Shown: piece by piece, positions 24,471 through 25,838 of the stretch
Position numbering within the stretch: the stretch's first letter is position 1
Layout of the letters: each line of letters starts with the position of its first letter
DNA from: Acidimicrobiales bacterium
GTDB lineage: Bacteria > Actinomycetota > Acidimicrobiia > Acidimicrobiales > JBOGIG01
Length of the DNA stretch: 64,000 nucleotides
Assembly: GCA_050742455.1 (NCBI GenBank)
Contig: JBOGIG010000029.1
Span: 3,455-67,454, forward strand
Direction of reading: 5' to 3'
The notes under the pieces: generated by a model
What the model was told of the DNA's origin: nothing
Seen by the model: only the letters and a program-made list of their open reading frames with translations
The model's database searches: none
Program-made: the position numbers and the translations under genes

Positions 24471-25838
24471 ATGAGCGAGGCGGCAACCGCTCGGATCCTT
24501 ACCATCATGGGTTCGGGCGAAACCAGTCCGACCATGGTCAAGACCCACCGGGAGATTCTCGATCTCTTGGGTCCCGCCCCGGTGCCTGCCGTGTTCCTCG
24601 ACACGCCCTTCGGGTTCCAGGAGAACGCGGCCGAACTGTCGGCCAAGACCCAGGCGTATTTTGCCGAGAGCCTGTCCACCCAGATAGAAGTGGCTGGCTT
24701 TCGATCGGGGCGCCAGGTCGGGAGCCTGGCCTACGAGCAGATGCTGACCCAGGTGCGCCGAGCCCGCTACGTGTTCGCCGGCCCGGGCAGTCCCTCCTAC
24801 GCCCTCGAACAGTGGTCGGGCACCGAGCTTCCCCGTCTCCTGTCCGACAAACTCAACAGCGGTGGGGCGGTCACCTTCGCCAGCGCCGCCGCCCTCACCC
24901 TGGGCGTGGCCTGCGTCCCGGTCTATGAGATCTATAAGGTCGGCCAGGATCCGCATTGGCTGGCCGGTATGGATCTGCTGGGCCGATTCGGACTCGATGT
25001 GGCCGTTATTCCCCACTACAACAATGCCGAGGGCACCAACCACGACACCAGATTTTGCTACCTGGGCGAGCGCCGGCTGGCGGCAATGGAGACCGACCTG
25101 GCGTCAGGGGTATTCGTTCTCGGCGTGGACGAACATACCGGTCTCGTTCTCGACCTGGATTCAGGCTCGGCTCGGGTTGTGGGACTAGGAGTTGTCACAG
25201 TGAGGGCCGGCGGGCGCTCCCAGACCTACCCAGCGGGCAGCACCACCACCATCGAAGCGCTGGCTCAGCGGGCTCGGGAGCTGGACCAGGGGGTCGACCT
25301 GAGCACTGGGGCCATCGGGGCCCCCCACGCCCCGAACGGCGAGGTCCCTGAGGGCGACGGCAGACCCCATTCCCCGCAGGCCCAAGCACCCGGCACGGCA
25401 CAGTCACCATTTCGAATCGTGGTTCGGGAATTCGGACAGAAATTCGACACCAACCTCAAGGCCCGGGATGTCCCGGGCGCCACGGCGGCCATGTTGTCCC
25501 TCGAATCCGAGATCCGGGCCTGGGGAGCCGATACCTTGCAGTCCGACGACAATGACGTAGCCAGATCCGAACTTAGACACATGATGGTTGCCATGGGCGA
25601 GCTGGCCGAGATGGGCGCCATCGACCCCCGTCTGGAATTAGGTCCGATAGTGGAGCTGGTGATCGCCGAACGCGACGCCGCCCGCTCGGAGCACAGGTGG
25701 TCCGATGCCGATGTAATCAGGGATCGACTCTTGGACACCGGAATCGAGATTCACGACACCCCAGATGGCACGCAATGGTCCTTCAATGCTCGGCCGGCGA
25801 CGATGACCGGTCCGCCGGGCCAGGCGGAGCAGGCCTGA
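24471..25838 (+). CDS. Hypothetical two-part protein: unassigned N-terminal alpha/beta-like domain plus CysRS-like C-terminal (DALR-2 / C-terminal helical) half
   Basis: 455 aa. The C-terminus [38 protein letters not shown] resembles the C-terminal motif of bacterial cysteinyl-tRNA synthetases. No HIGH or KMSKS motif is present. Confidence 0.6.

Follow-up and report, generated by a model that had tools for sequence, protein, structure and literature searches.

What reaction might an enzyme carry out if it kept the anticodon side of a cysteinyl-tRNA synthetase (CysRS) and carried a hydrolase in place of the catalytic core? This question is raised by a gene within a 64,000-nucleotide stretch of DNA from an Acidimicrobiales bacterium (contig JBOGIG010000029.1 of assembly GCA_050742455.1); we refer to this whole stretch as the window. 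The original prediction, made from the DNA letters and a list of translated reading frames, had placed a protein-coding gene at positions 24471 to 25838, and our analysis confirms a reading frame there on the forward strand (start ATG at 24471, stop at 25838; 455 amino acids). It had also proposed that residues of about 300 to 455 resemble CysRS, that the N-terminal part faintly recalls peptidase S51 folds, and that the protein might be a tRNA-binding or tRNA-dependent enzyme. As judged from sequence comparisons, the protein combines a hydrolase, in the position of the synthetase core, with the anticodon-side module of CysRS, and its gene is separate from that of the true synthetase. We favor, tentatively and at somewhat less than even confidence, the view that this fusion is a hydrolase directed at tRNA-Cys, or in some lineages an acyl-transferase.

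The N-Terminal Half Has a Peptidase S51 Fold

A structure model was built on 36 family members (mean predicted local distance difference test score, pLDDT, of 86; predicted template modeling score, pTM, of 0.80). In Foldseek, the best match of residues 1 to 265 was PDB entry 6NQC (E value of 1.9e-14; template modeling, or TM, score by target of 0.81). A probability of 1.0 was returned for 6NQC, for the cyanophycinase entries 3EN0 and 7UQW, and for the PepE entries 1FY2 and 6A4R, with TM scores by target ranging from 0.67 to 0.81. In addition, a profile built from the family’s N-terminal halves detects 6NQC with an E value of 9e-12. The faint S51 resemblance noted in the original prediction is therefore real.

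The predicted catalytic residues are likewise preserved, and this half appears to be an active serine hydrolase. Ser138 (within FASAAA), His182, and Glu221 are invariant in all 36 aligned sequences (alignment A1), and both Ser138 and His182 are also in register with a Listeria PepE-like protein (3L4E). The same 36 sequences share an invariant, family-specific loop after the catalytic histidine, which 6NQC lacks.

Searches with the single sequence yield only faint signals for this half. 6NQC is matched with an E value of 0.025, and the cyanophycinase model TIGR02069 gives 18.1 bits over residues 213 to 252 only, compared to a cut-off of 126.6. No match to Pfam Peptidase_S51 (PF03575) was found in the 455-amino-acid protein at E values up to 1, and some relatives carry only weak precomputed matches to this model. 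No sequence-profile match of the N-terminal half to CphB (3EN0, 7UQW) or PepE (1FY2, 6A4R) reached an E value of 10, and a look-up of this half in the ESM Atlas returned only the family’s own clusters. The N-terminal half, as modeled, has the S51 fold and triad, yet it lies outside the S51 and cyanophycinase families as these are defined by curated models.

The C-Terminal Half Corresponds to the Anticodon Side of CysRS

After a linker that is modeled as disordered, and that is nearly absent in the relative L019, the model shows four long helices and then a small alpha/beta domain. Three comparisons identify this region. The cysS model TIGR00435 aligns residues 317 to 437 with model positions 342 to 464 (E value of 5.8e-8), with no match to any other part of the model and a total of 32 bits against a cut-off of 340. 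Pfam CysS_C (PF23493) matches residues 389 to 436 with 24.9 bits, above its cut-off of 23. Finally, a profile of residues 310 to 440 from 18 members matches CysRS chains exclusively among PDB entries (E values of 4.9e-11 to 2.4e-4) and aligns to residues 338 to 459 of Escherichia coli CysRS, which comprise the helical bundle and the anticodon-binding domain. Thus, the CysRS-like C-terminal half described in the original prediction is not a spurious similarity. The absence of synthetase signatures is confirmed as well: a motif search found neither HIGH nor KMSKS patterns in the 455-amino-acid protein, which also lacks the Rossmann core and the stem-contact fold.

Six residues that are invariant in the family, R401, R405, D414, R417, D429, and W436, correspond in our alignments to R423, R427, D436, R439, D451, and W458 of E. 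coli CysRS, and the first five are also present in the CysRS encoded by the window’s own genome. R427 has been described as the end-point, within the anticodon-binding domain, of a communication pathway from the anticodon to the active site in the CysRS–tRNA complex (bioRxiv 10.1101/2025.02.14.638259). The C-terminal tail of the fusion is only 31% identical to the genome’s own CysRS, so it is not a recent copy of that enzyme. The genome encodes a complete, separate CysRS, a separate MshC-like protein, and one tRNA-Cys(GCA). E. coli YqeB was considered as a non-tRNA carrier of a CysS_C-type domain, and hhalign gave no match to it.

The protein as a whole is assigned to no characterized family. 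Assignment to such a family, an outcome that the original prediction had considered, did not turn up.

The Fusion Is Widespread

A word-indexed homologue search returned at least 8000 matches. In an exhaustive search of 50%-identity representatives, 487 clusters were recovered at E values up to 1e-30, nearly all of them 350 to 460 amino acids long and containing both halves. When one genome per species was scanned, at least 583 species genomes were found to carry a relative. Most belong to Acidimicrobiales and Dormibacterota, some are metagenome-assembled genomes labeled Chloroflexota or Mycobacteriales, and one is an isolate, Salinilacustrithrix flava. An even sample of 301 genomes from the phylum contains a full-length copy in about 24, chiefly in the window’s own order, and the many weaker matches in this sample are simply the C-termini of true CysRS proteins. 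These genome counts take in four unpublished genomes (G001, G048, G088, and G120), none of which carries the fusion, and none of our claims depends on them.

In databases, members are named “CysS/YqeB C-terminal domain-containing protein,” “cyanophycinase-like exopeptidase,” or simply hypothetical, and our literature search found no paper on the S51–CysRS fusion. The survey of distribution and gene neighborhood that the original prediction had recommended thus reveals a wide family in several phyla, whose design is widespread and unstudied.

Possible Functions of the Fusion Protein

In the reading that we favor, the C-terminal CysRS-type module would most likely dock the protein on tRNA-Cys via the GCA anticodon, and the S51 half, which stands where a synthetase has its catalytic core, would most likely attack the ester bond that links the amino acid to the 3′ terminus of the tRNA. 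Ser138 would then form an acyl-serine intermediate. In the window organism, which has a complete conventional mycothiol gene set, we expect that water would resolve this intermediate; the protein would accordingly be a free-standing tRNA-Cys-directed deacylase with a role in salvage or quality control. Where the gene lies in a sugar–inositol thiol cluster, as in some lineages, the acyl intermediate could instead be passed to an amine acceptor.

S51 substrates have a free alpha-amino group beside the scissile acyl bond, as does aminoacyl-tRNA. A covalent acyl-serine mechanism for S51 enzymes is stated by the title of PDB entry 7UQW. Acyl-serine chemistry at an acyl bond next to an alpha-amino group maps well onto an aminoacyl-tRNA ester. 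Several further observations favor action on tRNA-Cys. The entire anticodon-side module of CysRS has been retained rather than a short tail alone, and the fusion has been kept over the 487 clusters and several phyla although its linker varies freely. The genome has a single tRNA-Cys(GCA) along with its separate, complete CysRS. Moreover, a gene for a Fem-type GNAT directly follows two members that are only 43% identical to each other. The tRNA-dependent enzyme proposed in the original prediction therefore survives as the best-supported reading, through the whole module, the invariant residues (including the one at the R427 position), and the intact triad, whereas the argument it drew from the adjacent tRNA cluster is weaker than it implied, as discussed below.

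Other considerations weigh against a tRNA-Cys-directed hydrolase. We know of no need for editing by CysRS, nor of a natural mischarged or damaged substrate for such an enzyme. We infer tRNA binding by the fusion from sequence comparisons, and the conserved arginines and aspartates in its small C-terminal domain may have a structural role and not touch the anticodon. In the relatives L019 and L020 the linker is nearly missing and the helical bundle is shorter, which limits the ways in which the hydrolase could approach the acceptor end. When the 120 top-ranking proteins of more than 470 amino acids were inspected, none was a full-length CysRS fused to this S51 domain, which is weak evidence given how many places on that list are taken up by close relatives. 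In addition, the neighborhood of the gene in the window’s clade names no process related to tRNA-Cys.

The thiol clusters deserve separate consideration. In L029 and L032, the fusion gene is followed by genes for a Fem-type GNAT, a GT4 glycosyltransferase, and a PIG-L deacetylase, and in L029 only, genes for a histidine phosphatase and inositol-1-phosphate synthase come after these as well. This is the gene set for the glucosamine–inositol (GlcN-inositol) core of mycothiol. The two fusion proteins are 38 to 40% identical to the window protein, and the linkage between fusion and GNAT is old, since the fusion proteins share only the 43% identity given above and the GNATs 40%. The Fem-type GNAT family includes aminoacyl-tRNA-dependent transferases. 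Neither MshC nor MshD was found in the L029 genome, whose assembly is fragmented and of unknown completeness, and the top match to the MshC model there (157 bits) is the CysRS gene. The arrangement suggests that, in the L029 branch, cysteine may be added by a tRNA-dependent route.

The window genome presents a different picture. It carries genes for an MshA-like protein (422 bits), two MshB/Mca-like proteins, an MshC-like protein (391 bits, on C63), MshD (235 bits, above the cut-off), and Ino1, all on contigs other than that of the window, and because the full mshA-D set is present this genome needs no replacement. The fusion itself falls short of the MshC model TIGR03447 (cut-off of 485 bits) and has no synthetase core. 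As a separate observation, the MshC-like proteins at G000:C63:61928-63091, in genomes of the same order, and in several other families of the phylum score 360 to 432 bits, below the cut-off of 485, and stop near model position 385 of 411; they constitute a distinct, shorter group.

Several competing explanations were weighed. The protein might be an ordinary S51 peptidase, either a dipeptidase or a cyanophycinase-like enzyme, whose CysRS tail has been reused for oligomerization or for binding another protein or nucleic acid, unrelated to tRNA-Cys. The “cyanophycinase-like exopeptidase” name on members is in keeping with this, and so is the stand-alone nature of 6NQC, a peptidase-type protein and the closest relative with a solved structure. 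The gene context is also unspecific (alpha/beta hydrolase, zinc ABC transporter, GFO oxidoreductases), and a stand-alone S51 paralogue adjoins one member (L031). However, the 18 bits scored on the cyanophycinase model against 126.6, the missing Pfam Peptidase_S51 match, and the invariant loop that 6NQC lacks all speak against it. In addition, both CysRS sub-domains have been kept over wide divergence with exactly those polar residues that CysRS conserves, which would be unexpected for a spacer or dimerization tail. We judge an ordinary peptidase to be unlikely, if worth taking seriously.

The domain evidence that favors a tRNA-directed hydrolase would equally suit a peptidase regulated by the charging of tRNA-Cys. 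In GCN2, a HisRS-like domain senses uncharged tRNA, and by analogy the CysRS-type module could sense uncharged tRNA-Cys while the S51 half cuts a small peptide or amide, such as a cysteine-containing storage compound. Consistent with such a role, the fusion gene in close relatives is part of a chain with 4-nucleotide overlaps to clpS and a DUF2017 gene, and DUF2017, as the AosR family, connects the gene loosely with cysteine and thiol stress (PMC8280819). Yet this linkage is limited to one clade, with the genes lying far apart in 16 further genomes that carry the fusion, only part of the AosR model is matched (49.5 bits against a cut-off of 260), and no candidate peptide substrate is encoded nearby; we hold this explanation to be distinctly improbable. 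The thiol clusters described above raise yet another proposal, in which cysteine is transferred from Cys-tRNA-Cys onto Ser138 and then to the amine of GlcN-inositol, independent of both ATP and the ATP-dependent ligase MshC. The gene content of the L029 and L032 clusters, the age of their linkage, and the failure to find MshC and MshD in the L029 genome all point in this direction. Several facts speak against it: the window genome already has MshA-D-type genes and Ino1, an MshC-like gene is present in some fusion-bearing genomes and absent in others in no clear pattern, the thiol cluster occurs in only two of the seven distant members sampled and is lacking in the other five, the L029 assembly is fragmented, and the adjoining Fem-type enzyme could itself be the transferase. 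A cysteinyl transferase for thiol synthesis is, to our minds, the least probable proposal that we considered.

Hydrolases specific to one aminoacyl-tRNA guard the accuracy of translation, and enzymes that divert amino acids from tRNA recur in cell-wall, antibiotic, and peptide biosynthesis. The family described here is large, with members in hundreds of species from soil and water that include Acidimicrobiales and Dormibacterota, and in it a peptidase-type hydrolase has replaced the synthetase core while the tRNA-reading part was kept. If the favored hydrolase does act on tRNA-Cys, then the family would add a class of tRNA-directed enzymes not seen before, serving a synthetase that is believed to require no proofreading. 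Were it to transfer cysteine, it would provide a second, tRNA-dependent route to mycothiol-like protective thiols and put the S51 fold to work on a tRNA substrate for the first time; to our knowledge, this fold has never been tied to tRNA. If it is a plain peptidase, the family would merely be a mis-described domain fusion.

Gene Limits and Neighborhood

Table 1. Coordinates of the fusion gene, its domains and predicted catalytic codons, and adjacent features in the window
Feature	Position	Strand	Basis
Whole coding sequence, S51 hydrolase plus CysRS anticodon-side module, 455 amino acids (P0001)	24471..25838	+	Open reading frame call, domain matches, model
Peptidase S51-fold domain, residues 1-265, with family motifs including DEHT	24471..25265	+	Foldseek, profile match to 6NQC, invariant columns in alignment A1
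Ser138 codon, predicted nucleophile	24882..24884	+	Aligns with Ser of GCSAGA (6NQC) and GESAGA (3L4E)
His182 codon, predicted general base	25014..25016	+	IPHYNN compared to IPHFNK (6NQC) and LPHYNN (3L4E)
Glu221 codon, predicted third triad residue	25131..25133	+	GVDEHT compared to GIDEVT (6NQC)
Variable Gly/Ala/Pro-rich linker, residues 266-312	25266..25406	+	pLDDT < 50 at residues 283-307; length and sequence vary
Helical bundle, homologue of CysRS helical bundle, residues 313-388	25407..25634	+	TIGR00435 from position 342; E. coli CysRS from residue 338; four long helices in model
CysRS-type anticodon-binding domain, Pfam CysS_C, residues 389-438	25635..25784	+	PF23493, invariant residues
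9-bp tandem unit GTGACCGGA, eleven copies, between hydrolase gene and start codon	24370..24468	+	Read directly
tRNA-Glu(TTC), tRNA-Asp(GTC), tRNA-Phe(GAA) cluster	25870..26172	+	ARAGORN
Alpha/beta-fold hydrolase, frequent same-strand partner	23400..24329	+	Pfam Abhydrolase_6, Abhydrolase_1, Hydrolase_4
clpS and DUF2017 (AosR-like) pair, approximate limits	21029..21744	+	NCBIfam ClpS 140 bits; Pfam DUF2017; partial AosR match

Upstream of the ATG, the same frame remains open for 39 codons and crosses the 9-bp repeat array, whose translation in this frame is (SDR)n. No ATG, GTG, or TTG codon occurs in this open frame upstream of 24471, which rules out a start codon inside the repeat. In 16 relatives, the protein starts 2 to 8 residues ahead of a conserved MGSGET motif. 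Because there is no upstream start codon and because relatives begin at this distance from the motif, the annotated ATG is the likely start. The GTGACCGGA array takes up nearly the whole gap between the stop codon of the alpha/beta hydrolase gene and the ATG of the fusion gene, and a change in its copy number would affect the 5′ leader and not the protein. A scan for promoters and terminators from 23300 to 26400 gave nothing useful, and a look-up of public sequencing runs listed none, nor any holder of RNA.

The original prediction had noted that the gene lies immediately upstream of a tRNA Glu-Asp-Phe cluster, and ARAGORN indeed places this cluster 31 nucleotides past the stop codon. The linkage recurs among close relatives: of the 70 close loci with enough downstream sequence, 34 have a tRNA-Glu gene after the fusion gene in the same orientation, most often at a spacing of about 20 to 100 nucleotides. 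In contrast, the linkage is found at none of 19 loci of more distant relatives, one of which has other tRNAs. We read the linkage as inherited synteny, possibly with co-transcription, and not as evidence of a substrate, because it is absent in distant relatives, involves no tRNA-Cys, and occurs in genomes that are kin. In one distant relative (L012:1068-3011), genes for tRNA-Arg and tRNA-His precede the family gene and one for tRNA-Lys follows it, a set unlike that of the window.

The gene order in the window is ctaA, clpS, the DUF2017 gene, degV and plsY on the other strand, the alpha/beta hydrolase gene, the repeat array, the fusion gene, the three tRNAs, and then pstSCAB. Of 76 related loci, 23 have the alpha/beta hydrolase gene immediately before the fusion gene in the same orientation, with 4-nucleotide overlaps in L025. 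A DUF2017 gene takes this position in 15 of the 76, often with 4-nucleotide overlaps. In the close relatives L025 and L026, the clpS–DUF2017 pair immediately precedes the fusion gene. The DUF2017 family includes AosR of Mycobacterium tuberculosis, which senses redox state and turns on cysteine synthesis through CysM (PMC8280819), and this neighbor points loosely to cysteine and thiol stress.

A general linkage with clpS and DUF2017 was considered and rejected, as these genes are far from the fusion gene in the 16 other fusion-bearing genomes, where they lie on other contigs or, in complete chromosomes, 0.3 to 2.2 Mb away. The chain of clpS, DUF2017, (hydrolase), and fusion is clade synteny only. 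Separately, clpS and DUF2017 genes are adjacent to each other in all 16 genomes that have DUF2017 among 18 Actinomycetota genomes checked.

A divergently transcribed gene for epoxyqueuosine reductase (QueG) flanks the family gene at eight loci (L058, L072, L074, L077, L087, L091, L094, and L100), several of which also have a gene for a GAF-GGDEF-EAL protein after the family gene. QueG was discarded as a tRNA-related neighbor, since it is confined to these closely related Dormibacterota loci, whose QueG proteins are 75 to 84% identical. Another protein, P0317 (L118:4001-6025; 674 amino acids), combines an alpha/beta hydrolase, S51, and CysS_C in one frame, and its hydrolase part is 43% identical to the alpha/beta hydrolase encoded in the window. 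The record does contain all three parts, but its standing as a true triple fusion is doubtful, because it is a single sequence that begins in the middle of the hydrolase and may be a frameshift artifact.

Two further observations concern the genomes more broadly. The window’s genome contains a tRNA-Sec(TCA) and a SelA gene (C76:33387-34526; 419 bits, above the cut-off), from which we conclude that this organism probably makes selenoproteins. A link between the fusion and selenocysteine was considered on the basis that the anticodon UCA shares C35 and A36 with GCA. SelA is patchy among relatives, being present in 13 of 24 fusion-bearing genomes and six of nine relatives without the fusion, and the idea was dropped for this lack of association. 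Elsewhere, the true cysS at L021 (G000:C128, open reading frame 133-2856) lies within a 907-amino-acid reading frame (open frame of 1096 amino acids), in which an in-frame stretch of about 450 residues, free of stop codons, precedes the synthetase. This long frame could be a fusion with an upstream gene or a mere open frame in high-GC DNA.

Comparison with Known Systems

The closest known structure, 6NQC, is a “cyanophycinase-like exopeptidase” of family S51 from an acI-B1 Actinobacterium, for which our literature search found no functional paper. It has the same fold as the N-terminal half, and its serine, histidine, and glutamate align with those of the fusion. It differs in being a stand-alone protein of about 259 amino acids with no CysRS-type module, shares only about 20% identity with the S51 half, and lacks the 8-residue insert after the catalytic histidine that is invariant in the fusion family. 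The cyanophycinase CphB (3EN0, 7UQW) and the aspartyl dipeptidase PepE (1FY2, 6A4R) have in common with the fusion the S51 fold and a serine-based triad, and they work through an acyl-enzyme mechanism that is predicted for the fusion as well. These enzymes are 14 to 18% identical to its N-terminal half and have no tRNA-related domain.

On the other side of the fusion, the C-terminal part of CysRS (approximately residues 338 to 461 in E. coli; PDB 1LI5 and 1U0B) is homologous over both sub-domains, and its conserved polar residues are invariant in the fusion. CysRS possesses a catalytic core with HIGH and KMSKS motifs, whereas the fusion has none of these. MshC, the mycothiol cysteine ligase and a CysRS paralogue, resembles the fusion in being derived from CysRS and in a possible link to cysteine-containing thiols. 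However, MshC has retained the catalytic core and has no anticodon-binding end, and the fusion presents the reverse arrangement.

The archaeal ThrRS-ed and AlaX proteins are free-standing editing proteins that keep the tRNA-binding part of a synthetase without its core. Like the fusion, they join a hydrolase to the recognition module for a cognate tRNA and are encoded apart from the synthetase. Their hydrolase domains have other folds, which come from the synthetase’s own editing domain, and CysRS is not known to have such a domain. Fold and profile searches with the N-terminal half of the fusion gave only S51 peptidases and none of the known editing-domain folds (ThrRS-ed, AlaX, YbaK). The likeness of the fusion to trans-editing factors is a matter of design and not of descent.

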